Assembly: GCA_965279515.1 (NCBI GenBank)
Contig: CBDIID010000003.1
Coordinates: 1,632,001-1,696,000, forward strand
From: Turneriella sp.
GTDB taxonomy: Bacteria; Spirochaetota; Leptospiria; Turneriellales; Turneriellaceae
Reading direction: 5' to 3'
Length of the DNA stretch: 64,000 nucleotides
Each line of letters opens with the position of its first letter. Within the stretch, counting starts at the first letter, position 1. Made by a program: the position numbers and the translations under genes. Shown in pieces: positions 32,524 to 54,280 of the stretch. The notes beneath the pieces were generated by a model. It had not been told where the DNA came from. It saw nothing but the letters and a program-made list of their open reading frames with translations, and made no database searches.

Positions 32524-32553
32524 TATACGAGGGTTTACCGCCGTTGATGCCAA
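32524..32553 (-). promoter_or_regulatory. putative ECF-type promoter TTGGCA-N18-CGTATA
   Basis: Same motif recurs upstream of other secreted-protein genes in the window. Confidence 0.65.
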
Positions 32554-32623
32554 TATTCCCGCGCCGTGGTAATCCCCCCGAACTTAGACGTGACGGTGTG
32601 TTTCGATTCTTCAGCCATGCTCA

Positions 32624-33346
32624 ATGTATAGAGGACTGCGCATCCCGTCGCCCGTTCATTTTTTTATGAAAGCAGGCAAGAATCTGCCTGTTTTACGGCT
32701 CTGCCTGCTGGTGGCGGTAGTCGCTGCCGGCAACCTTTGGTCGGTCGGCGCCTCGATCGATCTGCCGGGAAAAACCGCGGAACAGGCCACGGAAGTTGCT
32801 AAAAAGGCATTGCAACGCCTCAACACTACCTGCACCGAAAAAGAAGAAACCATGGGCGCGCACTGGCGCTGCAAGACACCTTTTTATTCGATCGTATCCC
32901 TCGATGTCTTTGTCTCGACGATTCCCGATAAGGCGATCGTCCGCGCCGATTCGCGCGGCCGGCAAGGTTATGCCTTTATCGATCTTGTTGCCCAGGACGC
33001 GGGCCAGGGCCCCTTTGACCAAAAGTACGGTGAAAAATCCATGCTGCTGACCGTAGGCGCCACGATGGTTTCTCCGGCATTCGGTTACTGGTATATCAAT
33101 TCGGGTTCCATGATTAAAAGCAAATCGATCTTTCTCCCCTTTCTCGGCATGCTATTCGGCGACCTGGCGTTGTTCTGGGTCAGTTCAAAAACATTCTTCA
33201 CGAACGGTTTCGATCCGTTCGGCGACGGCCTGGCGCCGATGCTGGTTTCGATGGGCGCCTACCGCGCGGTGATGCTGGTGCCGTTTTCAATGCAGATTCT
33301 GGCGCACAACCGCTTCGCCGGATTGCAGATCACATACCGATACTGA
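32624..33346 (+). CDS. hypothetical envelope protein
   Basis: Signal-like N-terminus (start may be 32666), hydrophobic C-terminal half. Confidence 0.7.
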   Translation: MYRGLRIPSPVHFFMKAGKNLPVLRLCLLVAVVAAGNLWSVGASIDLPGKTAEQATEVAKKALQRLNTTCTEKEETMGAHWRCKTPFYSIVSLDVFVSTIPDKAIVRADSRGRQGYAFIDLVAQDAGQGPFDQKYGEKSMLLTVGATMVSPAFGYWYINSGSMIKSKSIFLPFLGMLFGDLALFWVSSKTFFTNGFDPFGDGLAPMLVSMGAYRAVMLVPFSMQILAHNRFAGLQITYRY

Positions 33347-33379
33347 ATTACCTGCGGTGAGTAGCAGGCGTATCGAACC

Positions 33380-34225
33380 GTGATCCAGGCTCTGCCGCTC
33401 TTCAAAGCGCTGGTCGAGCCTGTACGCATCCGCATTTACCTGCTGCTTAAAAAATCGTCGCTGACAGTTTCAGAACTTTCAGAAATTCTCGACCTTTCAC
33501 AGTCGAATACCAGCCACCACATCAAGGCGCTGCGCGATTTGGGATTACTCTCCGCGGAAAAAACCGGGCAACATACCTACTACCGCCTCGACACAGAGGA
33601 ACTCGCCGGCGAGCGCACACAAAAACTGCTGGCGACGCTGGGCGAACTCGGCGCAGAAATTCCCGAAACGAAGAGTGATTCGACAAAACTGAGAAGTGTG
33701 CTCGCGGCGCGCAGCGAAGATACCTTTGCGCAGTGGCGTCTCGAGCAGCCCGACCTGCCCTACTCCGATGTATTCGCGCACCTCGCCGCGGGGCGCCAGG
33801 GTACCGTGCTTGATATCGGCTGCGGGGAAGGCGATTTTTTTGAGCCGCTCAGCCTCGCCTATGAAAAGGTGATCGGCATCGATATCGATGCCGGCCACAC
33901 ACGCCGGGCTGCGGCGCGCGGGGGAGTGGTGTTGAGGGCCGATGCGCAAAATATACCGATTTGCAATGATTGTTTTGACGGCGTCGTCATGCGTATGGCG
34001 CTGTCGCAGATTCCCGATCCGATTGCCGCGCTCGACGAGGCTGTGCGCGTACTGAAACCCGGCGGCTTCATCAGCGTCATCGACGGCGAAAAAAAATCGG
34101 GGGATGCCTTCCAGCGGAAAATTATGGCACACTGGAAAGAGCGCGGCGCACTGCGTATCGATTTCGAACGTTCGCTGCCGCGGCTTTTCATGCTGCGCGC
34201 ACAGAAACGCTCAACGGGTCAGTGA
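33380..34225 (+). CDS. ArsR-family regulator fused to SAM-dependent methyltransferase
   Basis: FKALVEPVRIRI, LSQSNTSHHIKAL; VLDIGCGEG, RVLKPGG. Confidence 0.92.
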   Translation: MIQALPLFKALVEPVRIRIYLLLKKSSLTVSELSEILDLSQSNTSHHIKALRDLGLLSAEKTGQHTYYRLDTEELAGERTQKLLATLGELGAEIPETKSDSTKLRSVLAARSEDTFAQWRLEQPDLPYSDVFAHLAAGRQGTVLDIGCGEGDFFEPLSLAYEKVIGIDIDAGHTRRAAARGGVVLRADAQNIPICNDCFDGVVMRMALSQIPDPIAALDEAVRVLKPGGFISVIDGEKKSGDAFQRKIMAHWKERGALRIDFERSLPRLFMLRAQKRSTGQ

Positions 34226-34507
34226 AGCGTTGATGATCAGATCTGTATCTTCCCAGGCATTTTGTGTTTCTGTCACAATCGCTGTCGCCGATGTTTCGCT
34301 GAGCCCGGCATAAGTTTCTGCCCTTGTACCGCTGCGCGAGAACCAGAGCGTGCCCGCAGCTATGACGGCGACAGCCGCCGCGGCCCAGGGCGCATAGTGC
34401 TGCCGCGAAGCCGCACGCCGCAGCACTGCCGCGGTGGTTCTACGCGAGAAATCCTCATCGCCCAGCAACCGCTCGACTTCATGTTGATTATTTTTTTCCG
34501 TGCTCAT
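34211..34507 (-). CDS. small single-TM protein, putative anti-sigma factor
   Basis: WAAAAVAVIAAGTLW helix; directly after the ECF sigma. Confidence 0.65.
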   Translation of the reverse strand: MSTEKNNQHEVERLLGDEDFSRRTTAAVLRRAASRQHYAPWAAAAVAVIAAGTLWFSRSGTRAETYAGLSETSATAIVTETQNAWEDTDLIINASLTR

Positions 34508-35015
34508 GGCGCCCTCCTCTGTTGTTTTGCCTATTGCTTCTCGCCAGCCATTCTTTTCCCCGGGATAATCTTGACTTCACAGTTCCCGGCGCGATGCCCA
34601 GGTGCGAGGCAATTTCCGATACTTTCATGCCATTGCTGCGCAGCTGCACCGCTTCACGGAAAGGTTCGGGTATACCTGCAATCTGTAAATGCAGATTTTC
34701 AAGGCTTTCTTCATCAGGCATGTCGCCGGCTTTTTCGGGAAAGTTTTCTTTACGGCGAAAAATCGCAAACCACTCGCGGCGGGCTTTGCGGCCGGCCTTA
34801 TAGCTCTCATTGCGCGCGGCGACGAACAGCCATTTCTGCAGATCGTCACCCGTGAGCGGTTTTTTGTCCCTGAATGCGAGAAAATAGCGCAGGTAGGTTT
34901 CCTGCGCCACGTCTTCAATCTGACCGCCGGCATTTTCGGGAAGATACCTGCCGATCGCGCGCAGAACCGTTTGTTTGCTTGCCTCGATGCCCTGCGCGAG
35001 TTCGGCCTCGGTCAT
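34488..35015 (-). CDS. ECF RNA polymerase sigma factor
   Basis: EDVAQETYL, WLFVAARN, GTVKSRLSRG. Confidence 0.92.
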   Translation of the reverse strand: MTEAELAQGIEASKQTVLRAIGRYLPENAGGQIEDVAQETYLRYFLAFRDKKPLTGDDLQKWLFVAARNESYKAGRKARREWFAIFRRKENFPEKAGDMPDEESLENLHLQIAGIPEPFREAVQLRSNGMKVSEIASHLGIAPGTVKSRLSRGKEWLARSNRQNNRGGRHEHGKK

Positions 35016-35506
35016 TTTTCGTCCTGATCGTCTCCCGGGCGCGGTTTATCTTTACCGTGCTCCATTCTCTTCTTGTGCATCGTTTTGAGTTTCTTTTTCT
35101 GTTCGGGCGTCAGTAACGCTTCGAACTCCAGCCGGCCCTGGATGTCCTGCATCCGCATTTCGACATGGCCCTTACCGATCACCTCAAGCTGTCGGCGCAC
35201 GGCCCCCAGATCGACTTTATCTGCCTCAAGCAGTTTACGCAGCTCTTCGTGCAGCGGCTTCATTTTTTCACGCTGTGTCTTTTGCAACGCTTCGCGTGTC
35301 TCGTGGAGGGCCTTCGCCTTTTCCTGCTGTTCCTTTGTCAGGTTCAGCTCCCTGGTCATGCGTTCGAGGTGCTTTTTCGGATCGCCATGTCCTCTATGCG
35401 GCCCCGGCCCCATTCCCTCGCCGTGGTGGGCTGGCTTTTCCGCCCCTGCTGCGAATGTCGCAAGACTGAGGGCCAAAACCAGTAGAATTTTAATTTTTCG
35501 TTTCAT
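35012..35506 (-). CDS. Spy/CpxP-family periplasmic chaperone
   Basis: Signal peptide, His/Gly-rich linker, LNLTKEQ and LLTPEQ motifs. Confidence 0.9.
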   Translation of the reverse strand: MKRKIKILLVLALSLATFAAGAEKPAHHGEGMGPGPHRGHGDPKKHLERMTRELNLTKEQQEKAKALHETREALQKTQREKMKPLHEELRKLLEADKVDLGAVRRQLEVIGKGHVEMRMQDIQGRLEFEALLTPEQKKKLKTMHKKRMEHGKDKPRPGDDQDEK

Positions 35507-35532
35507 TGTTCCTCCTGAAGTATTTGCTACTA

Positions 35533-35558
35533 TAAACCCGCAGGAGCCAAAAGGTTCC
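35533..35558 (-). promoter_or_regulatory. ECF-type promoter GGAACC-N15-GTTTA for the spy-ECF-anti-sigma operon
   Basis: Canonical GGAAC -35 / GTT -10 arrangement ahead of the CAGGAGG RBS. Confidence 0.6.
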
Positions 35559-35564
35559 CGTTTT

Positions 35565-35909
35565 TTAACGCGGCACGAGCGTGCGCAGGTATTCGATCAG
35601 GTTTTGCCGGTCTTGGGGAGAAATCATCACAAACGAACGATGCCGCGCATCGCCTTCGAGAAATGCCAGAAGTTCGGTAAAATTTTTGCGCACGCGGATT
35701 AATCCCACTTCTTGTTTCTCGCGTTTCTGTCGCAGAATGTGCGCCGCGAGATGGCAGTCGCTGCAATCGTGAGAGGCGTAAACTTCTTCACCCAGCGCCG
35801 CGGTTGTATCTGTCTGCGAGCGGCGGCTGAGCCAAACCAAAACCACGAGCGCGGCAATGAGCGTAGCGCCGAAAATCTGAAGAATCAGCCGTTTATTTTT
35901 GCCCGACAT
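35565..35909 (-). CDS. membrane-anchored monoheme cytochrome c
   Basis: N-terminal TM helix; GEEVY..CSDCH; LIEYL C-terminal helix. Confidence 0.8.
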   Translation of the reverse strand: MSGKNKRLILQIFGATLIAALVVLVWLSRRSQTDTTAALGEEVYASHDCSDCHLAAHILRQKREKQEVGLIRVRKNFTELLAFLEGDARHRSFVMISPQDRQNLIEYLRTLVPR

Positions 35910-37716: not shown

Positions 37717-37747
37717 AAGAAAGCAATCAAAATTGTTTTTGTTATTT

Positions 37748-37777
37748 TTGGCACACGATGCCACGTGAGAGCGTACA
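37748..37777 (+). promoter_or_regulatory. putative ECF-type promoter TTGGCA-N18-CGTACA
   Basis: Recurrent motif, 8 nt before ATG 37786. Confidence 0.65.
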
Positions 37778-37785
37778 AGCGTGAG

Positions 37786-38208
37786 ATGATGCTAGTTTCT
37801 GCGGATAAACAGCTGACGATTTCAGAAAAGCACGAATGGATGATCTTTGTGCGCGAAACTGTCCAGGCACAGGCCAGGCAAATGCCGAACCTCGAACTTG
37901 CCCGGGCATGGCAGATGTTCGCTGACAGCCTGCATGCCGTTCATGCCGGTATCGGCAATCGCGACGGATTCATCAGCGTCTCTGACGTCGCCGACCTGAT
38001 CCAGGTCGCCTCTTCGGGGCTGAGATTTAACCGCGCCGGCATCGGCGAAAACCTGTTGTGGATGGAAATCGGCGGCGATGGCGAACTGGAAGTGACGTTT
38101 GAAGATAAATCCGTCAGCTGCTCAGCGGCACAGATGCTGGGTGCATTACGGCAGCTCATGCTGCAAATGCAGAAAAGACTGGCGGCGACGGCGATGCGGG
38201 CTCCCTAA
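37786..38208 (+). CDS. hypothetical protein
   Basis: ORF 37765-38208; start moved to 37786 to follow the promoter motif. Confidence 0.6.
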   Translation: MMLVSADKQLTISEKHEWMIFVRETVQAQARQMPNLELARAWQMFADSLHAVHAGIGNRDGFISVSDVADLIQVASSGLRFNRAGIGENLLWMEIGGDGELEVTFEDKSVSCSAAQMLGALRQLMLQMQKRLAATAMRAP

Positions 38209-38544
38209 GCCCGCGGAGAAGATTCTCGATTCATCTGATTTCACCGGGAGGCCGATTTTACTCAAAATGTTTTCGGTCCTAAGTTATTCGTGACCTCATT
38301 GGGAGCCTACAAAGTCATCGACGGATTAATTGATTCCGGCTTCGCCTGTGTGGGTATCCGAAATTTCTGGTGTGTGAACCAGATTTAAGGCATACCGTAA
38401 TTGACGGTTGCCAAGTCTTGCCTTGCGGTAATTGGAAAGCAGATTTTTTTGGGACTGTTTTTTTTCCCGCCAAGTACATTTCCCAAAGTCTGCCTTTTTA
38501 CGATAATAACATCTTTCTCATGAAATCAACCCAGCGCGAACTTT

Positions 38545-38572
38545 TTTGCATGGAACTTTATGGAATCCGTCA
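38545..38572 (+). promoter_or_regulatory. putative ECF-type promoter TTTGCA-N17-CGTCA at the head of the ECF-FecR operon
   Basis: Variant motif repeated at 42712-42740. Confidence 0.55.
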
Positions 38573-38580
38573 TACAATGT

Positions 38581-38949
38581 ATGCTAATCAAAATACCGAG
38601 GCGATTTATCAGAATAAAAAAAATCTCCCTGATCTCAATATTCCTATATGCCATAGGCTGCGCCAATGATACCCCGTCTGTCGTCGGGGGCTGGTACAAC
38701 CACCTCGGTCAGTACGCGTGCTTTCGTACCGATCATCGTCTCGGCATCGGCGACCATGTCAAAGAAGCTTTGGCGGGAACATCTACATGGTTCGACGACA
38801 ATCGATTGAAATTTTCCGATGGCGTGACAGGTTCGTGGAACATCATCTCCGACGGCTCCCTCGAAATCCTCGCCGAAAACTGCCGAAAAGGCTGCGATGA
38901 AAACCCGATGAAATTTCAACGGAATAACTCTTTTGGCTGTCCCGAGTGA
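38581..38949 (+). CDS. small lipoprotein
   Basis: Basic N-terminus, hydrophobic stretch, AIGC lipobox; VVGGW; overlaps ECF start. Confidence 0.7.
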   Translation: MLIKIPRRFIRIKKISLISIFLYAIGCANDTPSVVGGWYNHLGQYACFRTDHRLGIGDHVKEALAGTSTWFDDNRLKFSDGVTGSWNIISDGSLEILAENCRKGCDENPMKFQRNNSFGCPE

Positions 38950-39518
38950 TGGCGATGACTCCCGTCAGTATCGCATTAACAGGCGGAGACCTGCAAAACC
39001 TGCGACACAATGAGCCGAATGCGGATGCAAAAATCTGCGCATACTATCGGGCTTTTTTCCATGAGATCTATGTTTTTGTCCATCGCTACAGCCATGACGA
39101 TGAAGAAGCACAAGACCTCGCGCAGGATGTATTTGCAAAAGCTCTAAAATACCTGCGCAGGGCAAACGACGAAATATCAAATCCACGCGCGTGGCTTTAC
39201 CGGATCGCAAGAACCCACTGCATCGACCGTGTTTTCCGAAAGAAGAAAATTACCGCGACCGAACTGAAGCCTGACCTCGTCGCCGCGGCAAGTTCAAATG
39301 GTTCTTTCGAGGATTCTATTCTCGACCAGGCTATGGTAGACTCGGTGCTCGAATGGGTTTCTGAAAACAGCTCAGAAACGGAACAACAGATATTTGAGCT
39401 TAAAATTATCCGCGGGTTATCACAGGCCGAGATCGGCGAAATCATGCATTGCCATGCTTCGACTATTTCACGAATTCTAAACGGCATGACCGAACAGATC
39501 GTACGGAGATTCGCATGA
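38946..39518 (+). CDS. ECF RNA polymerase sigma factor
   Basis: AQDLAQDVF, AWLYRIARTHCID, GLSQAEIGEIM..STISR. Confidence 0.93.
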   Translation: MMAMTPVSIALTGGDLQNLRHNEPNADAKICAYYRAFFHEIYVFVHRYSHDDEEAQDLAQDVFAKALKYLRRANDEISNPRAWLYRIARTHCIDRVFRKKKITATELKPDLVAAASSNGSFEDSILDQAMVDSVLEWVSENSSETEQQIFELKIIRGLSQAEIGEIMHCHASTISRILNGMTEQIVRRFA

Positions 39519-40618
39519 ACTACCAGCAAATAAACATACTCCATCAACTCAAACAACTGAGTTCCGACCGGGGATCGTCGGATATTGATCTTCTGAGGGA
39601 TCGCTGGCATGATCGGTATCTTGAGTTTTGGAAAATCCGGGAGACTCCTGTAGACTTAAATGACCAGGCTATCGTGGCGAAACTTGGGGCAGATTCCCAG
39701 CCCGCATCTCTAAAACCCGACAGGGAGAGCTTCAAGGGCAAGATAAACGGTTCTTATTTCTTTGGGTGGCCTGCGGCTGCCATATTGCTGATCACCTTAT
39801 CAGCCCAACTACTCAACCGACTGGGATCCGGATTTTTTCAGCCCGCAACACGGCAGGTGCAGCTTTCCAAGGAAACAGCTGCCGTCACTGCTGGTCTATT
39901 TTACGGCGAAATTAACCGCACCACGAAAATGATCCGAACGAATTATGACACATTAAAGCTGGGGAAAGACAGCATCGATACAGATCTTGCGACAAAAATC
40001 CAAACGACATCCGCCGACCTGAGATTTGAACTCTTCAGGGATGGCATCGGTATTCGCCTTATTCACGGCGAAGTGCTCTTTAATTTTTCTCCGGGCGCCC
40101 CGACTCAGCGCTATATCATCTTCCCCGGTGATGAAATCGTCACGATTACCGGTACAGAGGTCTATGCAAGAATCGATGCGACGACCAGGCAGGTCTACCT
40201 GCGCCACGGCAGCGCCAGGCTGGAATCGCCCCACCGGGGAACGACAACACTCAGAACCGGCAAAGTGTATATGTTGGGTACCTCGCTGACCCGGCAAATG
40301 AGCGAGGAAACGGATAATGAAATTCTCAGGCACTTCGGGCTGGCAGCACCTTTAAAACGAAAACTCCCGGTTGCCCGCAAGGCAAAAAAGCGTGAAGAGA
40401 TTTCGTACGATTCCTGGATCGAAAGCGTTGAAGACGGCACCGATGCACAACTCAAAAGTCTGTTCCTGGAATTCAGGCACGTCTATAAGGTTTTCCTGCC
40501 AGAACGCAAAGTCGTGTATCTGGGGCAGGATAAAAATGAATCCGCGTTTTTTTTCACATCAGAGTATCAAATCCGGATTCCCGAAGATGTCCTGCACACA
40601 AAGGTGAGGTTGAAATAA
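39515..40618 (+). CDS. FecR-like transmembrane anti-sigma factor
   Basis: ATGA-coupled to ECF; one TM; IRLIHGEVLF..VTITGTEVY..VYLRHGSARL FecR pattern. Confidence 0.8.
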   Translation: MNYQQINILHQLKQLSSDRGSSDIDLLRDRWHDRYLEFWKIRETPVDLNDQAIVAKLGADSQPASLKPDRESFKGKINGSYFFGWPAAAILLITLSAQLLNRLGSGFFQPATRQVQLSKETAAVTAGLFYGEINRTTKMIRTNYDTLKLGKDSIDTDLATKIQTTSADLRFELFRDGIGIRLIHGEVLFNFSPGAPTQRYIIFPGDEIVTITGTEVYARIDATTRQVYLRHGSARLESPHRGTTTLRTGKVYMLGTSLTRQMSEETDNEILRHFGLAAPLKRKLPVARKAKKREEISYDSWIESVEDGTDAQLKSLFLEFRHVYKVFLPERKVVYLGQDKNESAFFFTSEYQIRIPEDVLHTKVRLK

Positions 40619-40622
40619 ATTT

Positions 40623-41666
40623 ATGAAACATATTTTTGCACCACATGATAAATTCTTCCTGCTATCGCTGTTTTTCACTCTTCAAGGCCCGCAACTTTCC
40701 GCCAGTGAGAGTAAAATTATTTCAGTAGCGGTTGAAGCCCCTGACCTGATAGAAATCCCCACTGAGCTAAAATACCTGGGGGTAAGCCTGGCAAAAAATC
40801 TGTGTGCCGGAATCGTCAAGGAAGAAATATTCATGCTCACCGGTTGCGGCGTCAAAAGAGAATCCAGGGTCGGCGTTTTCACGGTCGTCAGTTCCATCCG
40901 CGCCGAAGCGCAGCAATTGCTCTTTGAAACTTCGATACGGAATGAAAAAGGAACAGAGCTCGCGTCAACGAAGACACACTCCGGATCGGAGCGATACCAC
41001 GGACTGACCCTTGAATCGCACAGCCAAAAGGTGCTCAGTTACCTGAGAAATTTTGAGACATCCGAAAAACCAACGCAGGCAAAGGCTGTCAGCGAGATAA
41101 CTAAACCGGTTTCTAATGGCGATCAAAAGCATGATGGATTTTATTTCAATACCACCGCCGGTCTCGGCTGGATGAAAATCGACAGCGGCATTGAAGGACT
41201 CCCCGCTATATTGGGGATTAAATTGGGCGCCGCCGTTTCGGAACATTTCGTCCTGTTCGGGGCCGTCGACTATGGCTGGCTACAAAACCCCAAAATTGAC
41301 GCTTCAGTTCTGGTTTGTGCCAACAATAGCTGTAAAACTCAGAAAATTTCCGGAAACATGGATGGCCATATCGGTCACTTAAGCAGTAGCGCAGGGTTTA
41401 CCTATTATTCAGATGCGAATTATTTAATCCAGTTTTCAATTGGTCTGGCTGGTCTTATGAATAACTTCAGTGCCACCGGATATAATTCGAAGCTATTACC
41501 CGATGTTAGTACAATATTCAATCTGGCTATTGGCAAAGAATGGTGGGTCAGCAAAGAATGGGGAGTAGGAATCGCCATTCTCGGTCTTTTGGCGCCAGGA
41601 TTTACAACGGGAACATCCGTTGCGTATTCTTTCGTGGGCATCGGCGTCACGGCAACTTATAACTGA
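40623..41666 (+). CDS. outer membrane protein: periplasmic alpha/beta domain plus beta-barrel (paralog 1)
   Basis: Signal peptide; HDGFYFN..GLG, IGKEWWVS..WGVGIA, terminal VTATYN. Confidence 0.75.
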   Translation: MKHIFAPHDKFFLLSLFFTLQGPQLSASESKIISVAVEAPDLIEIPTELKYLGVSLAKNLCAGIVKEEIFMLTGCGVKRESRVGVFTVVSSIRAEAQQLLFETSIRNEKGTELASTKTHSGSERYHGLTLESHSQKVLSYLRNFETSEKPTQAKAVSEITKPVSNGDQKHDGFYFNTTAGLGWMKIDSGIEGLPAILGIKLGAAVSEHFVLFGAVDYGWLQNPKIDASVLVCANNSCKTQKISGNMDGHIGHLSSSAGFTYYSDANYLIQFSIGLAGLMNNFSATGYNSKLLPDVSTIFNLAIGKEWWVSKEWGVGIAILGLLAPGFTTGTSVAYSFVGIGVTATYN

Positions 41667-41676
41667 GAGATCATTG

Positions 41677-42702
41677 ATGAAAATAATAATCCAACGGAAT
41701 CTTTACCGCGTGCTAATCATTCTCTTGTTTCAAACACCGGGACTTTTTGCCATTCAAGAAAGAACACTAACGATCTCTGTTGGAGTTACTGACCTCATCG
41801 AAATTCCTGAAAACCTGAAGTATCTAGCCACCAGTCTGGCAAAAAACCTGTGCGCAGGAATAACCCAAACAGACGGTTATGAGCTAGCCGGTTGCGGATT
41901 GAACGCCAAAACCGAATCCACAGACTATATTATCGGCAACATTATCCGGTCAGAAAATCAACAACTGACATTTGAGGCAATGATCCGGGATAAAAAAGGA
42001 CAAGTGCTCGCCACAATCAAGAGCGAATCCGGTTCGGAGCAATACCACGGACTGATACTTGAATCGCACACGAAAACTATACTCGCTCGATTAGCAGAAC
42101 TACAAATAAGAAATACAACTCCTGCGGCAATAAGTTCCATAAAAACTTTATTATCCCCGGTCCACCGCCATGACGGATTTTATTTTAATGCGGTTGCAGG
42201 AACAGGCTGGGCCAATATTGACCGAATGGCGATGGGCGGCGCCGGCCTATTTGGCATTAAACTCGGCGGTGCGGTATCAGACCATGTCGTACTCTTTGGC
42301 GCCATCGATACCTATTGGATGTTTAGCCCTATCATGAAAACCGTAATAACCCTGGGAGATAAATCGATTGCGCTTTCAGGAAACCTCGACGGATATATAT
42401 TGATGCCAAACTTCAGCGCCGGAGCCGGGTATTATACCGATAGCAATTATTTTCTATTACTTTCCATGGGGATGGCCGCATGGCAAATAAAATCCGATGT
42501 GCCTCAAACGACATTTGGTGGCACAAAAGAATCAAATCCCGGTTCGAGCTTGAGCCTCTCTATCGGCAAGGAATGGTGGATCAGTGACAATTGGGGAATC
42601 GGTGTCGCACTGATAGGCCATGGCGCTATAAATATGAGCAGAGGGGTCTATGGCAGCGGCTACTATTTCGCGGGCATCGCGGTTACGGCAACCTATAACT
42701 AA
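41677..42702 (+). CDS. outer membrane protein: periplasmic alpha/beta domain plus beta-barrel (paralog 2)
   Basis: Shares DLIEIP, LKYL..SLAKNLCAGI, SGSE.YHGL.LESH, HDGFYFN, IGKEWW, VTATYN with paralog 1. Confidence 0.75.
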   Translation: MKIIIQRNLYRVLIILLFQTPGLFAIQERTLTISVGVTDLIEIPENLKYLATSLAKNLCAGITQTDGYELAGCGLNAKTESTDYIIGNIIRSENQQLTFEAMIRDKKGQVLATIKSESGSEQYHGLILESHTKTILARLAELQIRNTTPAAISSIKTLLSPVHRHDGFYFNAVAGTGWANIDRMAMGGAGLFGIKLGGAVSDHVVLFGAIDTYWMFSPIMKTVITLGDKSIALSGNLDGYILMPNFSAGAGYYTDSNYFLLLSMGMAAWQIKSDVPQTTFGGTKESNPGSSLSLSIGKEWWISDNWGIGVALIGHGAINMSRGVYGSGYYFAGIAVTATYN

Positions 42703-42704
42703 TA

Positions 42705-42740
42705 TGGCTTTTTTGCAAGGGTGGTATCGTATCTTCGTCA
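42705..42740 (+). promoter_or_regulatory. overlapping ECF-type motifs TGGCT-N18-CGTA and TTTGCA-N18-CGTCA
   Basis: In the 46-nt gap before ATG 42749. Confidence 0.5.
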
Positions 42741-42748
42741 GACAGATT

Positions 42749-44371
42749 ATGAAAACTAATAATCCTGCGATGGACATGATCGATCGCCTATTTAGCTACG
42801 GACGAATATTTTCTTGCGGCAGTGCCTTTTGCCTGTTTTTACTTTCTTGCTCCGGGGGAATGACAACAACCGAAATCGGCGGCAACACATACCAGAAGCC
42901 AGCGGAACCGATGCAGCCATTACCGCAACCTCCGGTGCTTACCCCCTATATGTTTGGATTAAGTACTGCCATCTCCGGAGACACGATGGTCGTTGGAGCG
43001 CAATACGACAGCAGCGATGAAACGGGCGTAAAAAACGGAACGGCAGGCGAAGCAAACGGCAATTTGGGCGGAAGTGGCGCGGCATACGTCTACAGGAAGA
43101 TTGGTAATGACTGGGTGCAAGAAGCTTACCTCAAAGGCTCTGGCACCAGCATCGGCGACATTTTTGGAACAAGCGTTGCTATTTCAGCAGATACGATCGT
43201 TGTAGGGGCATTCAAGGAAGACAGCAACGAAACCGGCGTTAAAAACGGGACAACAGGCGGCACAAATGACCTCTTAACGGACAGCGGTGCAGCTTATGTT
43301 TTCAGGCGGACGGGGAACCTCTGGACGCAGGAAGCATATCTCAAAGGTTCTGCAACAAGTAGGGGGGATAGGTTCGGCAGAAAAGTCGCCATCTCCGGTG
43401 ATACCATCATCGTTGGCGCTGCTGAGGAAGACAGCAATGAAACGGGTGTAAAAAATGGTGCGACCGGCGGCACAAACGATCTCTTAACGGACAGCGGCGC
43501 AGCTTATGTTTTCCGGCGCACGGGAAACCTCTGGGCGCAGGAAGCATATCTCAAAGCCTCGTCGACAGACTCTGATGACCAATTCGGATACAGCGTGGCC
43601 ATCTCCGGCGACACCATCGTTGTCGGTGCCCGGCTTGAGGAAGATCCCGGTGACGTTACTTTAAATAGCGGAGCAGCATATGTTTTCAGGCGCACTGGTG
43701 CCCTCTGGGCCCAGGAGGCATACCTAAAGAACTCCGGTATCAGTTCTAACGGTAATTTCGGTTCGAGCCTTGCGATTGCAGGTGACACGATTGTGGTTGG
43801 CGCTCTCTATGAAGACAGCAATGAAATGGGTGTGAAGAATGGAATTCAGGGAGGCATTAATCTCATGTCTACGGATAGCGGTGCTGCCTACGTTTTTAAA
43901 CGGACGGGAACATTTTGGGTCCAGGAAGCATACCTAAAAAGTTCAAATCCATTTCCAAGCAGCTATTTTGGTCAAAGTGTCTCTATTTCCGGGGACACAA
44001 TCGTCGTCGGCTCAGATCTTGAAGATAGCGACGAAGAGGGCGTCAAGAACGGAACGGGAGGAGGGCTGAACAATTTGCGGACATGCAGCGGTGCAGCCTA
44101 TGTTTTCAAACGCGCAGGTAATCTCTGGTCGCAGGAAGCTTACTTAAAAGGTTTAGGTACAAGCAACTGGGATAGATTCGGATCTAGTGTCGCAGTATCC
44201 GGTGATTCTATCATGGTGGGAGCTCCCTACGAAGCCAGCGACGAACTGGGTATAAAAAACGGACCATTTGGTGGTCTCAACGATCTCTGGAAAGACAGCG
44301 GCGCCGCCTACGGCTACACACGCACCGGCAACACGTGGGCGTCGACGGCTTTTTTTAAAAGGTCCAATTAA
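42749..44371 (+). CDS. FG-GAP (integrin-alpha-like) seven-repeat beta-propeller lipoprotein
   Basis: LLSC lipobox; seven FGxSVAISGDTxVVGA...SGAAYVF..W.QEAYLK repeats; start may be 42770/42776. Confidence 0.9.
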   Translation: MKTNNPAMDMIDRLFSYGRIFSCGSAFCLFLLSCSGGMTTTEIGGNTYQKPAEPMQPLPQPPVLTPYMFGLSTAISGDTMVVGAQYDSSDETGVKNGTAGEANGNLGGSGAAYVYRKIGNDWVQEAYLKGSGTSIGDIFGTSVAISADTIVVGAFKEDSNETGVKNGTTGGTNDLLTDSGAAYVFRRTGNLWTQEAYLKGSATSRGDRFGRKVAISGDTIIVGAAEEDSNETGVKNGATGGTNDLLTDSGAAYVFRRTGNLWAQEAYLKASSTDSDDQFGYSVAISGDTIVVGARLEEDPGDVTLNSGAAYVFRRTGALWAQEAYLKNSGISSNGNFGSSLAIAGDTIVVGALYEDSNEMGVKNGIQGGINLMSTDSGAAYVFKRTGTFWVQEAYLKSSNPFPSSYFGQSVSISGDTIVVGSDLEDSDEEGVKNGTGGGLNNLRTCSGAAYVFKRAGNLWSQEAYLKGLGTSNWDRFGSSVAVSGDSIMVGAPYEASDELGIKNGPFGGLNDLWKDSGAAYGYTRTGNTWASTAFFKRSN

Positions 44372-44399
44372 TCCGGGAGCCCTTTTGAAATGACAAATT

Positions 44400-44429
44400 T
44401 TGGCATCTGGCTGCTCTATTTCTCGTACA
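44400..44429 (+). promoter_or_regulatory. putative ECF-type promoter TTGGCA-N18-CGTACA
   Basis: Recurrent motif, 8 nt before ATG 44438. Confidence 0.65.
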
Positions 44430-44437
44430 GACGTTTA

Positions 44438-44848
44438 ATGAAAGTAAAAATAATATTCTCCGCATTACTGCTGGTGTCAGCGGCTATCTGGAGCGAATCA
44501 ATCGCAGTACCGGAAAATCACAAAGAAATCGTCGCAAAAAAATGGAAGCTAAAGAAAGTTTTGCGCGATTCAACGGACGTGACAAAAATGTTTAAGAAAC
44601 AAACCTTTACGGCTGTCGAATTCGTCGTCGACGGCAAACTGAAGACCAACGAGCCCGGCGTCATGTCGGCCTCCTGGAAATTCGAAAATAACGAATTGAT
44701 TATGGACACTCAGCATAAGAACAAACGCGACCCTAAACACCCCACAAGAGCCACAGTGAACTACACAGACGTCGAAGCGACGGCAAAATCTTTAAAATTT
44801 TCTAAGGATTTTGGTGGGGCCAAAATAACCTGGATCTTTTCAAAATAG
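44438..44848 (+). CDS. secreted lipocalin-like hypothetical protein
   Basis: Signal peptide; IVAKKWKL, FVVDGK, SWKF pattern. Confidence 0.65.
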   Translation: MKVKIIFSALLLVSAAIWSESIAVPENHKEIVAKKWKLKKVLRDSTDVTKMFKKQTFTAVEFVVDGKLKTNEPGVMSASWKFENNELIMDTQHKNKRDPKHPTRATVNYTDVEATAKSLKFSKDFGGAKITWIFSK

Positions 44849-47798: not shown

Positions 47799-47848
47799 CC
47801 CAAAGCGGCGATTACTTTACGCACTCACTCAAAATAAAACTCCCGCGC

Positions 47849-48526
47849 ATGGCAAAACTTGTTTTAATCCGCCACGGCCAGTCACTGTGGAACCTGCATA
47901 ACCTCTTCACCGGCTGGGTAGATGTACCGCTTTCGGCGCAGGGAGTACAGGAGGCGATTGCCGCCGGCAAACGCCTCGCCGATGAGAAGTTTGACTTGAT
48001 CTATACTTCGACGCTGATCCGCGCGATCACGACGGCAATGATCGTGATGTCTGAAAACAAAGAAGGCAAGGTGCCGATTTTGCAGAAGACCGCGGCTGAA
48101 AAACCGTTAGACTGGTTCAAGATCTATTCGCCTGCCACCGAAGCCAACATGATTCCCGTCTACTCGGCCTGGGAGCTCAACGAGCGCATGTATGGCGAGT
48201 TGCAAGGCTTGAATAAAGAAGAAACCGCGAAAAAATTCGGCGACGCCCAGGTGAAAATCTGGCGCCGCAGCTACGATGTGCCGCCACCCAACGGTGAGGC
48301 GCTTAAAAACACCGCTGAGCGTACCATTCCGTGGTTTCAGAAAAATATTGAACCGCAGCTGAAAGCGGGCAAAAATATTCTCGTGGCGGCGCATGGCAAC
48401 AGCCTGCGCGCAATCATCATGTATATCGAGAAGCTCAGCGAAGCGCAGGTGCTCGAACTGGAACTCAAAACCGGGGAACCGGTGATTTTTACGGCAAAGG
48501 GTGACACGATCGCGCGGGGCGGATAA
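47849..48526 (+). CDS. gpmA: 2,3-bisphosphoglycerate-dependent phosphoglycerate mutase
   Basis: LIRHGQS, FTGWVD, LNERMYG, WRRSY, AHGNSLR. Confidence 0.97.
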   Translation: MAKLVLIRHGQSLWNLHNLFTGWVDVPLSAQGVQEAIAAGKRLADEKFDLIYTSTLIRAITTAMIVMSENKEGKVPILQKTAAEKPLDWFKIYSPATEANMIPVYSAWELNERMYGELQGLNKEETAKKFGDAQVKIWRRSYDVPPPNGEALKNTAERTIPWFQKNIEPQLKAGKNILVAAHGNSLRAIIMYIEKLSEAQVLELELKTGEPVIFTAKGDTIARGG

Positions 48527-48534
48527 ACAGCCTC

Positions 48535-48753
48535 GTGCCACGCGAACTTGCCCTGTTGGTTTTACAACACCTCTTCGACAGGCAGGGGAGGCGCGTTCCG
48601 CTCGGCGATCTCGAAGTTGCCCTGGGAAAAGACATCCACACACTGCGCCCGGCGATCGAAGATCTCAAGCTGCGCGGATTCATTAACGAAGAAGAATACC
48701 TGATAGAAATTCTCGCGGCGGGCCGCGACTTCGCGCGCAGCCGCTGGGTATGA
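48535..48753 (+). CDS. small winged-helix-like hypothetical protein
   Basis: 72 aa filling the gpmA-ruvC gap; ATGA overlap with ruvC. Confidence 0.6.
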   Translation: MPRELALLVLQHLFDRQGRRVPLGDLEVALGKDIHTLRPAIEDLKLRGFINEEEYLIEILAAGRDFARSRWV

Positions 48754-49241
48754 AATTCCTGGGTATCGACCCCGGCTATGCGCGGCTGGGTTATGGCATC
48801 ATTGAGGTTACCGGCAACCGCGCGGCATTCGTCGATGCCGGGGTTTTCGAGACCAGCCCCAAACACGCCGAAGGGGAAAGGCTGCTGCAACTACAGAAAT
48901 TTCTCCAGAACCTGTTTAAATCCCATTCGCTCACGCACGCAGCGCTCGAGCAGGTTTTTTTGCGCCGCGACCTGACGACGGGTATTAAACTTTCAGAGGC
49001 CCGCGGCGTAATTTTAATGAATCTGTTTCAGGCCGGGGTTTCATATTCTGAAATCTCACCGAGCGCGATGAAAAAGACAATCACGGGCTCGGGGGCAGCG
49101 CAGAAAAAAACCGTGCAGCTGATGACGGCGAAACTCCTCCATTTGCCGGCGCAGATGAAGATTGATGACGCGGCCGACGGCCTGGGCCTCGCATTTTGTG
49201 CATGGTTGAAATGGCAGGCGACACAGAGATCACTTGCCTGA
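48750..49241 (+). CDS. ruvC: Holliday junction resolvase
   Basis: LGIDPG, E, ARGV, KKTITGSG.A.K, DDAADGL. Confidence 0.96.
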   Translation: MKFLGIDPGYARLGYGIIEVTGNRAAFVDAGVFETSPKHAEGERLLQLQKFLQNLFKSHSLTHAALEQVFLRRDLTTGIKLSEARGVILMNLFQAGVSYSEISPSAMKKTITGSGAAQKKTVQLMTAKLLHLPAQMKIDDAADGLGLAFCAWLKWQATQRSLA

Positions 49242-49803
49242 ACCTAAAGAGAAACTACCTTCCGTCGAATACACAATCGACAACCATAATCGCCTGATCC
49301 ATTTTGGCGGTGATTGGGATCAATTCGCCCAGGAAAATGAAGGCGAAAACTTGTCTGCTGCGAAACTGCACATGCAGCACCTGTTCGACCACATTGGCGA
49401 TCCGAATCTGCATCAGCTTTGGCACGCCATTATTCAGCGGGTGCGCGGAAAAAAAGAAGCTGCGGAATTTAATTACCGGTGCGATTCACCTGGTCTCAGA
49501 CGATTTATGAGAATGCGTGTTTTTCCTGCCGATGACCACATCCACTTCAAATCCACGGTTCTGCGAACAGAAACACGCCCCGAACTGAAGATCCTCGAAA
49601 AAAAACGTCCTCACAGCAAAAAGCTACTGATTGTCTGTAGTTGGTGTAAAAACATCAAGGCACCGGATGAAACCTGGCTGGAACCTGAAGTCGCCGTTAG
49701 CCAGCTGGGCATTCTCGAAGAAGAACCTCTTCCGGAAATCTCTCATGGTATCTGTCCCGAATGTACAGTGCGGGTTACCGAACAGTTAGATGTAATCATA
49801 TGA
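49234..49803 (+). CDS. PAS-like domain plus C-terminal Cys-rich motif protein
   Basis: WDQFAQEN..YRCDSP..RFMRM; VCSWCKNI..W..SHGICPEC. Confidence 0.75.
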   Translation: MPEPKEKLPSVEYTIDNHNRLIHFGGDWDQFAQENEGENLSAAKLHMQHLFDHIGDPNLHQLWHAIIQRVRGKKEAAEFNYRCDSPGLRRFMRMRVFPADDHIHFKSTVLRTETRPELKILEKKRPHSKKLLIVCSWCKNIKAPDETWLEPEVAVSQLGILEEEPLPEISHGICPECTVRVTEQLDVII

Positions 49804-49867
49804 CCAGAGGCCGGGCATGCCGGCACAGGTCGACGTACTTCAATGATGTGGCTCTGCCACTGCACCT

Positions 49868-49891
49868 GCAGCGCGGCTTTCACCGCGCTGC
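49868..49891. terminator. GC-rich hairpin between convergent genes
   Basis: GCAGCGCGG-CTTTCA-CCGCGCTGC. Confidence 0.6.
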
Positions 49892-49897
49892 GGAAAA

Positions 49898-50008
49898 TCA
49901 CGCAGGAATAAAAGTTTTCTTTTTCTCTTGCTTAGCGACCTTTTTTTCTTTGGCCGTTTTCGTAGGTTTTTTCTTCTGATCTTTTTTAGTGTTTTTATCT
50001 TTTGACAT
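49898..50008 (-). CDS. 36-aa lysine-rich small protein (below ORF-track cutoff)
   Basis: MSKDKNTKKDQKKKPTKTAKEKKVAKQEKKKTFIPA; followed by the hairpin. Confidence 0.65.
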   Translation of the reverse strand: MSKDKNTKKDQKKKPTKTAKEKKVAKQEKKKTFIPA

Positions 50009-50115
50009 TGTCCGTCATGAACGGCAAACCACGCTCATTGGCAAGGGTATCTGTGATTCTTTTTCCAGCGATACGATTGACATCGCTGCGGGGGCCCACA
50101 CCCCGCCATTACGTT

Positions 50116-52806
50116 ATGAGTCCCGAACTCGAAAGCCTCGAAAAGAAGATCGCGGCACTGGAAGGCCAGGTTTTCAGCCTGCGCTCCGAACTCGAAAAAG
50201 CCAAAAGAGGAACTCCGCCGGTAGTCGCCACGAAAGCGGAAGCACAGCCAGTGACGGCAAAGCAGGCGGCCCCGCCGCAGACGACCCTAACTGCGACAGC
50301 CAGCCCTGCGCCCGCCGCGAGGCCAAAAGAGGCGCCGGCGGTTCAGCCGGCTGCAGCAACGGTCAACGACGCCGGCTTTTCATGGGAATGGCTGATCGGC
50401 GGCAATATCATCGGCAAGATCGGTATCGTCACGCTGATCGTCTCGACCGCGCTCTTCATGGTCTATGCGCTCGACCAGGGCTGGCTCAGCGAGTGGATAC
50501 GACTTCTGATGCTGCAGGCCGCATTCGGCGCGCTGAGCTACCTGAGTTATCGGCTCTATGTAAAGAACTACAAGGTGATTCCCGAGATTCTCGCGATCAC
50601 GGCGCTGGCCGCCAATATCATCGCCATCTATTCCGCGCATTTTGTGTACCGCTTTCTCGGGCGAACCGAGACGATGGCGATGATGGCTCTCCTCATGGCG
50701 ATTGCGCTCGCCTTCGCGCGGCGCATACAGTCCACCGCGCTAACGGTCATTTTATTTGCCGGATTTTTTGCCCTGCCCGTTATCCATTCGCGCGGCATCA
50801 ATGAACCGAAAGCTTATTTTACTTATCTTTTGGCAGTAAACCTGCTCTATTTTCTGCTGCAACAATTCAGGTCTTCGCCGCACACCCTCTGGGTTCTGGC
50901 GCTCGGCAATGCACTTAGCCTCTTTGGCTGGGCAGGTGCTTACCGGCAGTATGCGACAACGCCGCTGTTTTTCTGCGCGGTGACGCTGGTGATACTGCTG
51001 TATAACGCACATAAGTCATCATGGGGACAGGCAAGTCCCGGGGCCGGCGACGCCATGGATGGCGTCCGTTCGACGGCCGGGGGTTTCTTTCGCGCTGCGG
51101 CGGTGATTTTCGTCAATATCGTCTATGCCGGCATGGTATCCTCCGTACTTTCACTCAACAAAGACTTCTCCAAGGAAATCACCGCGCTTGCCTTGCTCTG
51201 CCAGGCTGCGATTAATTTTCTCGTCGTGCAGTTTCTTCCAGGTGAAAAGCGCAGCCTGTCGTCTGCGACGCTCATCGTCATTTTGTTCATGGCTTCGGGC
51301 GTCAGCGTGATTATGGATGGTCCGGCAGAACGCCTCGTACTGGCGGTGCTGCTGACCGCGGCGATGTTTGTTGCCGGCAAGTGGCCCGACCCGCTCGTCT
51401 ACTATGGCGCGGCGACGGTGAATCTCATCAACCTCGTCGCGCTCTTTGTCGGCCTCTCGCATTCAAGCGACCGCTGGTTCATCCTGAACTTCCAGGCCGG
51501 TGGATTCCTCTTCTATGCGGTGGCGGCTATTTATATGCGCGCGAAAACAATCTGGCCGCAACGTTTCAATTTCGGCATCGCACTCACGGGCGTGGCATTG
51601 GTGACATCGTTTATCGGCATTATCACCGAATTGCAGCGCGTCGTGACAACGAAAGACTCACGCCTTTTAATGATCACGCTCGTCTTTGCCGCCTATGCGC
51701 TGACATTGCTGTTCATCGGTTTCCGCTGGCAAAAGGTCTGGTTCCGCCAGGCGGGTCTCTTTTTTATGGGCCTGGCGATCGCAAAATTTTACTTCATCGA
51801 TATCTGGCAATGGGATAAATCAGTCCGCATTATTGCGGGCATCATTATGGGAGGTGGCCTCGTGCTCATCAGTTTCTATTACGAAAAATTCAGGAATAAA
51901 TTCAAAGAATTAGGAGTGATCCTTATTCTCGGTGGTTTTGTGCTGTCTTCAAGCCCTGTCGAAGCGGTGGAGAAATTCAAACCGAACCGCTTTAAGTTTG
52001 TCAAAGAGCTCTCGCTCAAAGGCGAACTCAATGGCAAAACTTTCGGCAGCGTGGTCGTCGACGCCGACATCTACAAGTCGGCTGGTGAAAACGACGTGCG
52101 CCTCGCCTACGACGGCAAGATTGTCCCCTATGCGCGGCAAATGAAAAAATCGGGCGACGATAAGAGAATGGAAAAAGAGATCACGGTCGCAGACCTCGTA
52201 ACGTCTGTCGATGGTGAAAACAACTCGATCTTTATCTTTGAGAACCGCGACAACATCCGCCTGAGCGGGCTCAAACTTAACTTTAAAGAAAAAGATTATA
52301 CCCGCGAAATTCTGGTCTACCACCGCTCCGGCAAATTTCAGCCCAATGTCCTCGCGAAATCGATCACTCTCACACGCAAGGCGGGCAAGCCCGAATTCCA
52401 CACGGTTGATTTTGCTCCGGTCTCGGGGGAGATCCAGCTGCAGATCCGCAATGAAGACGATGCGGCGTTGGCATTGACGCAGTTCGCCGCGGTTTCAGAC
52501 AAAGAGTTTATCATCTTCCGCGTTCCCGATAATTTTGCCGATTCTGATAAGAAGATCCAGCTCTACTACAGCGGCGAATATTCGCAAAAGCCCAAGTACG
52601 ATATCGCCGATTCGCTCGGCGAAGGTACGGCCTATGCCGAGTTCGCGCTCGAAGCAGAGAAACCAAACCCCCAGCACAAGCTGACGCTGTTTGACCCGCC
52701 CTACTCGATCTGGCTCTTCCGTACGGTGTTCTGGCTGCTGCTGGCACTCATTGCCTGGCGGATGTTCGCGATTTACAAGAGAGAAAAGACTTCGACAGCT
52801 ATTTGA
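50116..52806 (+). CDS. DUF2339-like multi-pass membrane protein fused to a DUF3999-like extracytoplasmic domain
   Basis: WEWLIGGNIIGKIG start of TM region, AKFYFIDIW..RII end; then DVRL...VPY and QLYYSG..PKYD with final TM. Confidence 0.75.
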   Translation: MSPELESLEKKIAALEGQVFSLRSELEKAKRGTPPVVATKAEAQPVTAKQAAPPQTTLTATASPAPAARPKEAPAVQPAAATVNDAGFSWEWLIGGNIIGKIGIVTLIVSTALFMVYALDQGWLSEWIRLLMLQAAFGALSYLSYRLYVKNYKVIPEILAITALAANIIAIYSAHFVYRFLGRTETMAMMALLMAIALAFARRIQSTALTVILFAGFFALPVIHSRGINEPKAYFTYLLAVNLLYFLLQQFRSSPHTLWVLALGNALSLFGWAGAYRQYATTPLFFCAVTLVILLYNAHKSSWGQASPGAGDAMDGVRSTAGGFFRAAAVIFVNIVYAGMVSSVLSLNKDFSKEITALALLCQAAINFLVVQFLPGEKRSLSSATLIVILFMASGVSVIMDGPAERLVLAVLLTAAMFVAGKWPDPLVYYGAATVNLINLVALFVGLSHSSDRWFILNFQAGGFLFYAVAAIYMRAKTIWPQRFNFGIALTGVALVTSFIGIITELQRVVTTKDSRLLMITLVFAAYALTLLFIGFRWQKVWFRQAGLFFMGLAIAKFYFIDIWQWDKSVRIIAGIIMGGGLVLISFYYEKFRNKFKELGVILILGGFVLSSSPVEAVEKFKPNRFKFVKELSLKGELNGKTFGSVVVDADIYKSAGENDVRLAYDGKIVPYARQMKKSGDDKRMEKEITVADLVTSVDGENNSIFIFENRDNIRLSGLKLNFKEKDYTREILVYHRSGKFQPNVLAKSITLTRKAGKPEFHTVDFAPVSGEIQLQIRNEDDAALALTQFAAVSDKEFIIFRVPDNFADSDKKIQLYYSGEYSQKPKYDIADSLGEGTAYAEFALEAEKPNPQHKLTLFDPPYSIWLFRTVFWLLLALIAWRMFAIYKREKTSTAI
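51024..51082. repeat. GGA-loop palindromic element, in frame inside the DUF2339 gene
   Basis: GGGAC-N6-GTCCC, then GGCCG..GACGCCA-TGGA-TGGCGTC..CGGCC. Confidence 0.65.
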
Positions 52807-52820
52807 GCCGCGGCTTTTTT

Positions 52821-52849
52821 TTGGCACTTTAGAAAATCTCTATCGTACA
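52821..52849 (+). promoter_or_regulatory. putative ECF-type promoter TTGGCA-N17-CGTACA
   Basis: Recurrent motif directly after AGCCGCGGCT-polyT terminator-like site. Confidence 0.65.
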
Positions 52850-54230: not shown

Positions 54231-54280
54231 TGCCTGCCCGGCTTTCCGTTTTGTCGGCATTTTTTCCTTCGGAACTGCAA

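Follow-up and report, generated by a model that had tools for sequence, protein, structure and literature searches.

The 64,000-nucleotide stretch of Turneriella DNA analyzed here (the window; positions 1,632,001–1,696,000 of contig C3 in the near-complete 4.9 Mb genome G000) carries four copies of a two-part motif, which an earlier note on the window had described as an extracytoplasmic function (ECF) sigma factor promoter joining scattered surface-protein genes. We find that this motif, A/T-tract-TGGCAY-N17(16)-KCGTAYA (motif 1), is real and is likely an ECF promoter. It recurs at a preferred spacing, stands before genes, is conserved before orthologues, and co-occurs with the gene of one sigma factor. 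Motif 1 is probably read by that factor, the ECF encoded at C3:3,588,634–3,589,113, 1.9 million bases from the window, which would turn on about 31 transcription units, the window containing four or five of these. A second motif, T6GCA-N17/18-CGTC (motif 2), heads the cluster of the ECF encoded at 38946 of the window. Two separate ECF promoters are thus likely, motif 1 being global and run from elsewhere, and motif 2 being local.

Motif 1 and its spacing

Four matches to the strict pattern (TTGGCA-N17/18-CGTAYA) lie in the window on the coordinates and strands first reported for them, and none of 100 shuffles reaches four (shuffle mean 0.01), which bears out the claim that the fourfold occurrence exceeds chance. 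Genome-wide, the strict pattern has 12 matches at spacers 17/18, against a total of 13 at the remaining 24 spacers in the range 5–30. Seven of the eight matches outside the window lie directly upstream of a gene in the sense direction, and one is antisense within a gene. Intergenic matches to the looser pattern TGGCAY..CGTA number 20 at spacer 17, 6 at spacer 16, and 0–4 at each of the ten other spacers between 12 and 23; under our own codon-model gene call, 12% of the contig is intergenic.

A matrix trained only outside the window yields the consensus given above and scores the four window sites at 22–25 bits. It finds 30 intergenic sites above 18 bits versus 0–2 at wrong spacers, a count that includes the training sites. 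The motif 1 set used below comprises 31 sites of at least 18 bits, these 30 and the window site at 44401; two other sense-coding matches and one antisense match were dropped, though above 18 bits. The spacer is N17 in 28 of the 31 and N16 in the other three, and its columns hold less than 0.3 bit, the base before CGTA excepted. An A/T run of at least four precedes the −35 box in 26/31 sites, and the box itself is TGGCAY in 24/31 and TGAAAC in none. With its four sites, the window ties as the densest 64-kb stretch for motif 1. The sites had been described as always outside coding regions, and they do lie upstream of likely starts, but the one at 44400 falls inside the longest version of an open reading frame (ORF; from 44390), before the likely start at 44438, and the one at 37748, intergenic in the codon-model call, overlaps the longest version of a divergent ORF.

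TGGCAY equals the −24 box of sigma-54 promoters, whose consensus is TGGCAC-N5-TTGC. Moreover, rpoN lies in the window, and the sigma-54 motif is in use in G000, where TGGCAY-N5-TTGC occurs intergenically 18 times at N5 versus 3–6 times at other spacers. It is nonetheless extremely improbable that the motif 1 sites are sigma-54 promoters or transcription-factor operators. TTGC occupies the −12 position in none of the 31 sites, on which ground the sigma-54 reading was rejected; the second block lies 17 nt away across a spacer nearly free of information; and the site is nonpalindromic, directional, and follows one ECF clade. A housekeeping sigma-70 (TTGACA-like) promoter was rejected by eye, as the spacer to a TAYA box would have to be 19–20 nt and most sites lack the final T of TAnnnT.

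Promoter geometry and predicted start sites

ECF promoters are numbered with CGT at −13 to −11 (PMC7776599, Table S1), which places TGGCAY at −36 to −31 and +1 after 8–9 intervening bases. At −36 to −31, TGGCAY is in register with the general ECF consensus TG..AC. The two blocks 16–18 nt apart, the uninformative spacer, and CGT at −13 to −11 are as expected of a bipartite ECF-type promoter, as are the sense, intergenic placing ahead of genes and its conservation at orthologues. Among 60 sites pooled from five genomes, the start codon lies 8–16 nt past CGTA in 26 and closer in one, versus 123 of 3036 at the equivalent distance from other intergenic CGTA; 16 start codons pile up at 8–10 nt (6 at 8, 7 at 9, and 3 at 10). 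With +1 at 8–9 nt after CGTA, this pile-up implies that many motif 1 mRNAs would be leaderless or nearly so, and leaderless transcripts are described as common in Leptospira interrogans (PMC5243855). The start-codon geometry and the −13 to −11 numbering make a start 8–9 nt after CGTA more likely than the 4–8 nt after CGTA/CGTC that had been expected.

The probable sigma factor for motif 1

G000 has 34 sigma-70 region 2 genes; the window contains two, 34488 and 38946. When all 34 were compared with the sigma loci of seven relatives, C3:3,588,634 was the only one with reciprocal matches in all of G001, G006, and G013 but in none of G011, G002, G007, and G004 (completeness 84% for G001, 99% for G013, and 98–99% for each of the last four). 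Its product, of 159 aa, has regions 2 and 4 only (PF04542, PF08281; TIGR02937 above cut-off). The five genomes that carry this sigma, those with a match of at least 51%, show pattern/reversed-control counts of 26/11 (G000), 16/6 (G001), 11/2 (G006), 6/3 (G013), and 3/0 (G003), and the nine genomes without it have 0–3 pattern matches.

A TGGCAY box lies within 100 nt past the sigma stop, before the anti-sigma gene, in all nine clade members (six of clade A, three of clade B). The same box is present at 3 of 143 distant ECF loci (among the matches listed in metagenome and genome contig scans, which served as negative controls), at 1 of 9 sister loci, and at 2 of 16 loci of motif-poor genomes. 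Two close matches from the contig scans were excluded from all counts as possible duplicates of loci already included. In the home island of the sigma, sites with unrelated spacers precede four genes in G000, five in G001, and six in G006. No intergenic motif 1 site is aimed at the sigma gene itself; the anti-sigma gene has one.

The window gene at 31357 offers a comparison within one family. Its site is found at 5 of the 30 loci examined, all of them close homologues (48–100%) in sigma-bearing genomes (G000, G001, G006, and G013). G005, in which the sigma was not found, has a 50% homologue that scores −0.8; a 45% G000 paralogue, which lies behind another ECF, scores −4.6; and all 23 distant homologues fall below 10 bits. 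Motif 1 is likewise kept before orthologous STAS, 90-aa secreted, and other genes in G001, G006, G013, or G003.

Residues of the sigmas were mapped to RpoE via alignments to Mycobacterium tuberculosis SigE and Bacillus subtilis SigW, on which we placed what we take to be the RpoE numbers. The position of Asn84 is invariantly Asp in the sigma clade, and that of Arg171 is Met in 15 of 18 clade-A rows. In the published substitution data (PMC7776599), Asp at the first position gives CG at −13/−12 in 0.62 of activity, and Met at the second gives T at −31 in 0.63 and C in only 0.06. T is the commonest −31 base in our set (17/31). These data would fit the motif 1 sigma in part.

Several points weigh against the assignment to C3:3,588,634. 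The genomes are kin, so the matching presence and absence of sigma and motif is not independent, and G003 (77% complete) has the sigma yet only 3 pattern matches, no more than the sigma-less G012, G009, and G007. The ECFs at C3:1,809,020, 1,821,385, and 2,487,485 share the presence in G001 and G006 and the absence from the four motif-poor genomes; it is only by their absence from G013 that they are excluded. At the anti-sigma sites, the −10 is nonconsensus in 6/9 clade members (AGTA, CGGC, CGAC), and the relaxed −10 pattern was fitted to those very sites. The wrong-spacer control of the matrix is biased by the training sites, and G005 is only 92% complete. C stands at −31 in 12/31 sites, more than the published Met variant predicts, and Arg at the Ser172 position showed no base preference in the published test (PMC7776599, for this variant); the residue code thus fails to explain the GC of TGGCA. 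ECF 38946 likewise has Asp at the Asn84 position, so this residue cannot tell the two sigmas apart. Finally, a pyrimidine–purine start signal was not seen in the 33 long-leader sites. The assignment rests on computed sequence evidence, and kinship and the low G003 count hold our confidence in it at high but well short of certain.

Motif 1 might instead be the promoter of another ECF, or be common to several, with the 16-nt-spacer sites, for instance, read by a second factor. The three ECFs with the G001 and G006 pattern would be candidates. So would sister clade B, whose members have TGGCAY-N16-CGTC before their neighbours, and G012, which has clade B only, retains an N16-CGTA site upstream of a gene orthologous to a G000 target; B. 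subtilis ECFs are described as overlapping on such promoters (PMC5758882). We consider this unlikely. In G013 none of the three ECFs was found, and their G000 neighbourhoods lack an intergenic site (the region of C3:2,811,870, a different gene, aside), the clade B gene was not found in G000, and most N16 matches in genomes without the clade fall inside ORFs. The factor at C3:3,588,634 remains the preferred reader of motif 1.

The sigma clade is small, with 41 clusters, the named ones being Turneriella, Leptospiraceae, or Spirochaetes bins. The clade B ECFs with TGGCAY-N16-CGTC before neighbouring genes are those at L083, L084, L072, and L219:7022–7050, and G000 retains this sequence before a homologous lipoprotein gene (C3:4,229,022), although the clade B sigma was not found there. 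In G006 and G003 (L049:8453–12217 and L071), a clade A ECF accompanies a motif-bearing divergent gene, which in G006 is SpoIIE/HAMP, and the anti-sigma gene is followed by a STAS-like one, an arrangement that suggests a partner-switching module tied to the clade A sigma. A 16.2-bit N16 site before a DUF6249 gene and a genus-wide ECF (L051:3109; C3:858,109) makes a sigma cascade possible. A 23.7-bit match within the coding region of another G006 ECF gene (L109:645) is probably a coding coincidence.

Predicted targets of motif 1

Signal-peptide-like starts, scored by our own heuristic, are found in 21 of the 31 first genes versus 825 of the 2689 genes with an upstream gap (p 3.6e-5), an enrichment that the earlier note had suggested looking for with a gapped position weight matrix. 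The target families include DUF1554, IPT with propeller, NHL, LamG/Ig, Lcl_C, CsgG-PEGA, and LpoB. The proposal that an ECF-type promoter joins scattered surface-protein genes is upheld to this extent, but the 31 sites are spread over the whole genome, and roughly one-third of the targets are nonsecreted proteins, among them ClpP, two STAS proteins, a SpoIIE phosphatase, a radical SAM enzyme, DUF805, and the FecR-like anti-sigma.

Motif 2 and ECF 38946

T6GCA-N17/18-CGTC occurs intergenically four times in the genome at these spacers, always in the clusters of ECF 38946 (38542 and 42709) and its paralogue C3:1,454,547 (C3:1,454,899 and 1,457,137). TTTGCA-N17/18-CGTC had been taken for a variant of motif 1. 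Its sites at 38542–38571 and 42709–42739 are indeed present, but with 4/4 copies in two paralogous ECF clusters they constitute a separate motif; as a genome-wide variant, TTTGCA..CGT is not enriched and was rejected in favour of a local motif of four sites. Motif 2 heads the gene or operon in 3/3 family members of at least 44% identity, namely ECF 38946, its G006 orthologue (52%, with an orthologous operon), and the G000 paralogue (44%). It was not found at the operon heads of four more distant homologues (27–35%), and the pattern alone does not follow ECF 38946 across the genus (0–6 matches per genome). At 38581, at 42749, and in G006, the ATG follows CGTC by 9 nt. The C3:1,454,899 site also has an ATG at this distance, but it begins a frame of just 12 codons; the frame of the sigma begins at 19 nt. 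Motif 2 is likely read by ECF 38946 and by the paralogue, each at its own cluster only, and both would be autoregulatory.

Before the FG-GAP gene, motif 2 (42709–42739, T6GCA-N18-CGTC, ATG 9 nt on) overlaps a motif 1 sequence (42705–42731, TGGCTT-N17-CGTA, 16.6 bits). This gene may take both sigma inputs, as the only overlap of the two regulons.

The earlier note had named ECF 38946 as a possible controller of the strict motif, and one might suppose that it serves both motifs and all of their sites. Within 5 kb of it there are three motif 1 sites as well as a weak fourth, in a window that ties for the densest stretch; GCA and CGT are common to both motifs, and Arg occupies the Ser172 position in both sigma types. 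This is, however, very unlikely. ECF 38946 was not found in G001 (84% complete) or G013 (99%), where motif 1 precedes orthologous genes, and the loci of its G006 orthologue and its paralogue hold no motif 1 site above 14 bits. Its own operon is headed by a different motif, and it lies outside the 39-row clade of the motif 1 sigma (99/98 support). We accordingly do not retain it as the controller of motif 1, for which C3:3,588,634 is preferred.

Two further observations concern this cluster. A weak motif 1-like site (TGGGAC-N17-AGTA, 38450–38476, + strand, 14.1 bits) lies ∼100 nt upstream of the ECF 38946 operon and could link the regulons. The cluster (38560–44848) has a G+C content of 48.3% versus 53.1% for the contig and is patchy in the genus, which suggests acquisition.

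Sites and genes of the window

The features of the window are collected in Table 1. The site at 52815–52847 has an in-frame ATG 39 nt downstream and an out-of-frame ATG at 8 nt. The latter, at the predicted start site, begins a 34-codon out-of-frame ORF (52856–52960, +) 8 nt past the CGTA of this site that overlaps the IPT/propeller gene. A paralogue of this gene at C3:3,252,884 also has a motif 1 site (18.4 bits). With the queries used, a full-length orthologue of 52887 or 37786 was found in 0/13 other genus genomes, the 37786 protein was not found in these at all and gave no usable match in an Atlas search, and 44438 has only three distant orthologues among the 13, none with a site. Cross-species footprinting of these three sites was therefore precluded. 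The LenA/B model falls below its cut-off on the DUF1554 protein.

Table 1. Promoter-like sites and associated genes in the window (window coordinates)
Feature	Coordinates	Strand	Details
Sequence TTGGCA-N17-CGTT before GNAT gene that looks frameshifted	20110..20136	-	<9 bits; in neither regulon
DUF1554 (Len-like domain) putative lipoprotein, second of pair	30056..31360	-	PF07588 1e-21
Predicted target: signal-peptide protein, first of pair with DUF1554 gene	31357..32481	-	no Pfam match
Motif 1 site TGGCAT-N17-CGTA with A/T tract	32526..32559	-	22.4 bits; ATG 44 nt downstream
Motif 1 site TGGCAC-N17-CGTA	37742..37775	+	23.8 bits; ATG 10 nt downstream
Predicted target: 140-aa protein	37786..38208	+	no signal peptide, no family
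Motif 2 site T6GCA-N17-CGTC	38542..38571	+	ATG 9 nt downstream; likely autoregulatory promoter of ECF 38946
Putative lipoprotein, 122 aa	38581..38949	+	start moved from 38560, which falls within promoter spacer
ECF sigma factor	38946..39518	+	likely reads motif 2, not motif 1
Putative single-pass anti-sigma gene	39515..40618	+	FecR-like by position and look only; no Pfam or NCBIfam match at E 0.01
Two paralogous-looking signal-peptide proteins	40623..42702	+	barrel-like C-termini by eye; no family match; ECF 38946 cluster
Overlapping motif 2 and weaker motif 1 sites before FG-GAP gene	42705..42739	+	
FG-GAP repeat putative lipoprotein, 540 aa	42749..44371	+	PF14312 1e-71
Motif 1 site TGGCAT-N17-CGTA	44394..44427	+	24.4 bits; ATG 10 nt downstream
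Predicted target: 136-aa signal-peptide protein	44438..44848	+	lipocalin-like is an earlier label only
Motif 1 site TGGCAC-N16-CGTA, 16-nt spacer	52815..52847	+	24.9 bits
Predicted targets: IPT/TIG + beta-propeller putative lipoprotein, then NHL-repeat gene	52887..55651	+	

The site reported before the GNAT gene was rejected as a regulon member. Its letters are present, but it fits neither motif, and CGTT at spacers 16–17 occurs in 0 of 80 intergenic A/T-tract-TGGCAY boxes. The gene itself (19578–20089, −) lies in two frames, and the frame from the start at 20089 breaks before the GNAT domain ORF (19578–19898); it looks frameshifted or else carries an assembly error. The second ECF of the window, in the region 34488–35506 (−), lies behind a Spy/CpxP-like periplasmic gene, downstream of a histidine kinase with seven transmembrane (TM) segments, and is paralogous to C3:4,129,085. 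This ECF (34488–35015) was set aside as a reader of motif 1, as it has no orthologue in the seven relatives. Elsewhere in G000, the 19.8-kb contig C2 shows the same matches three times with a period of ∼6,626 bases, as from a small circular element assembled three times.

Putative anti-sigma factor, barrel, and a proposed mechanism

The gene at +1 of C3:3,588,634 encodes a one-TM FecR-like protein (PF04773, 24.1 bits; cut-off 24) and holds the same place in 9/9 loci. Its structural model predicts helices at the N terminus and one long helix that crosses the membrane, followed by a beta domain and a last domain. The modelled beta domain matches the periplasmic domains of PupR and BDI_1681 (E 2e-6 and 5e-8), and the last domain appears to match the Hfq/Sm fold (root-mean-square deviation 1.2–1.9 over 50–55 residues, E about 0.01–0.05); its match to the Leptospira LA_0442/LA_0875 domain is weak and below cut-off. 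The +2 gene, shared by the four clade A islands that were aligned, encodes a protein (235 aa) that combines a signal peptide with a five-stranded domain and an OmpA/NspA-like barrel of 8 strands. The 7 TonB-receptor (PF00593) matches all lie more than 400 kb from the island. The TonB-dependent receptor at +2 that marks proteobacterial and Bacteroidetes members of the FecI-like groups (ECF239–243) is thus not found at this locus, the +2 gene being the barrel.

The FecR-like single-pass anti-sigma encoded alongside would hold the sigma inactive until a signal from the envelope or from outside frees it. RNA polymerase would then initiate 8–9 nt past CGTA, in many cases at the start codon or beside it. 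The outputs would be mostly secreted proteins and putative lipoproteins, and the ClpP, STAS, and SpoIIE proteins could tune the signal. As the anti-sigma gene has a site and the sigma gene none, activation would raise the inhibitor and damp the response. We hypothesize that the small domains of the anti-sigma and the barrel make contact; a profile comparison of the anti-sigma C-terminal domain with the barrel N-terminal domain gave no significant relation (probability <1%). A tentative and rather doubtful scheme would be TonB-independent surface signalling, in which the 8-stranded barrel is the sensor and its periplasmic five-stranded domain pairs strand-to-strand with the Hfq/Sm-fold domain of the anti-sigma; the surface-protein regulon so controlled would be spread over the chromosome, largely leaderless, and equipped with feedback of its own (anti-sigma, ClpP, STAS/SpoIIE).

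Relation to known systems

By its described features, the closest known group is spirochaete ECF242. The FecI-like ECF242 factors, as described in PMC7826278, share with the motif 1 system a minimal ECF, a one-TM FecR-like gene at +1, and the lack of an autoregulatory motif, and in spirochaetes they have no adjacent TonB-dependent receptor, as here. That description gives no promoter motif, whereas here one was recovered from the anti-sigma gene and the targets. The ∼31-site regulon and the 8-stranded barrel at +2 also differ from it; the likeness is by description only. The FecA-FecR-FecI and PupB-PupR-PupI systems resemble ours in the matches of the anti-sigma model to the PupR and BDI_1681 periplasmic domains; in contrast, here there is no TonB-receptor match within 400 kb, the anti-sigma ends in an Hfq/Sm fold, and the output is dispersed over the chromosome.

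B. subtilis sigma-W (TGAAAC...CGTA, as given in PMC5758882) shares the CGTA −10, N..D residues in region 2.4, and the TG..A/C register of the −35. Here, however, the −35 is TGGCAY, the spacer is mostly 17, the A/T tract precedes the −35 instead of lying in the spacer, and there are differences in region 4.2 and in the anti-sigma, which is FecR-like. By analogy, the motif 1 system would work like FecI/FecR cell-surface signalling with a sigma-W-like −10 box. L. interrogans LIC_12757/LIC_12756, as described in PMC12155086, likewise pairs a spirochaete ECF with an adjacent FecR-like regulator, with CGT in the −10 region and no known outer-membrane transducer. In this comparison, made by description and not by sequence, LIC_12757 is autoregulated, while the motif 1 sigma is without a site of its own; in autoregulation, ECF 38946 with motif 2 is closer to it than the motif 1 sigma is.

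Motif 1 was not found described in our literature searches, though figure logos, the ECF Hub, or the PMC7776599 datasets could hold a similar motif; TGGCA has 0 occurrences in the part of the ECF classification supplement covered (PMC7826278). Hardly any spirochaete ECF promoters have been described. The L. interrogans start-site map is described as recovering only a sigma-54 motif (PMC5243855), and the supplement of PMC7826278, in its entry for ECF242, gives that group no predicted motif because its members do not autoregulate. The clade is small, and ECF regulons as such are already known. Two sigma–promoter pairs are now specified closely enough for reporter testing, and searching behind the sigma gene, not ahead of it, may recover the motifs of other ECFs that are not autoregulated. 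A set of predicted targets for a sigma under FecR control that lacks a TonB receptor bears on what signals to such systems in Leptospiraceae, such as the one described in PMC12155086.

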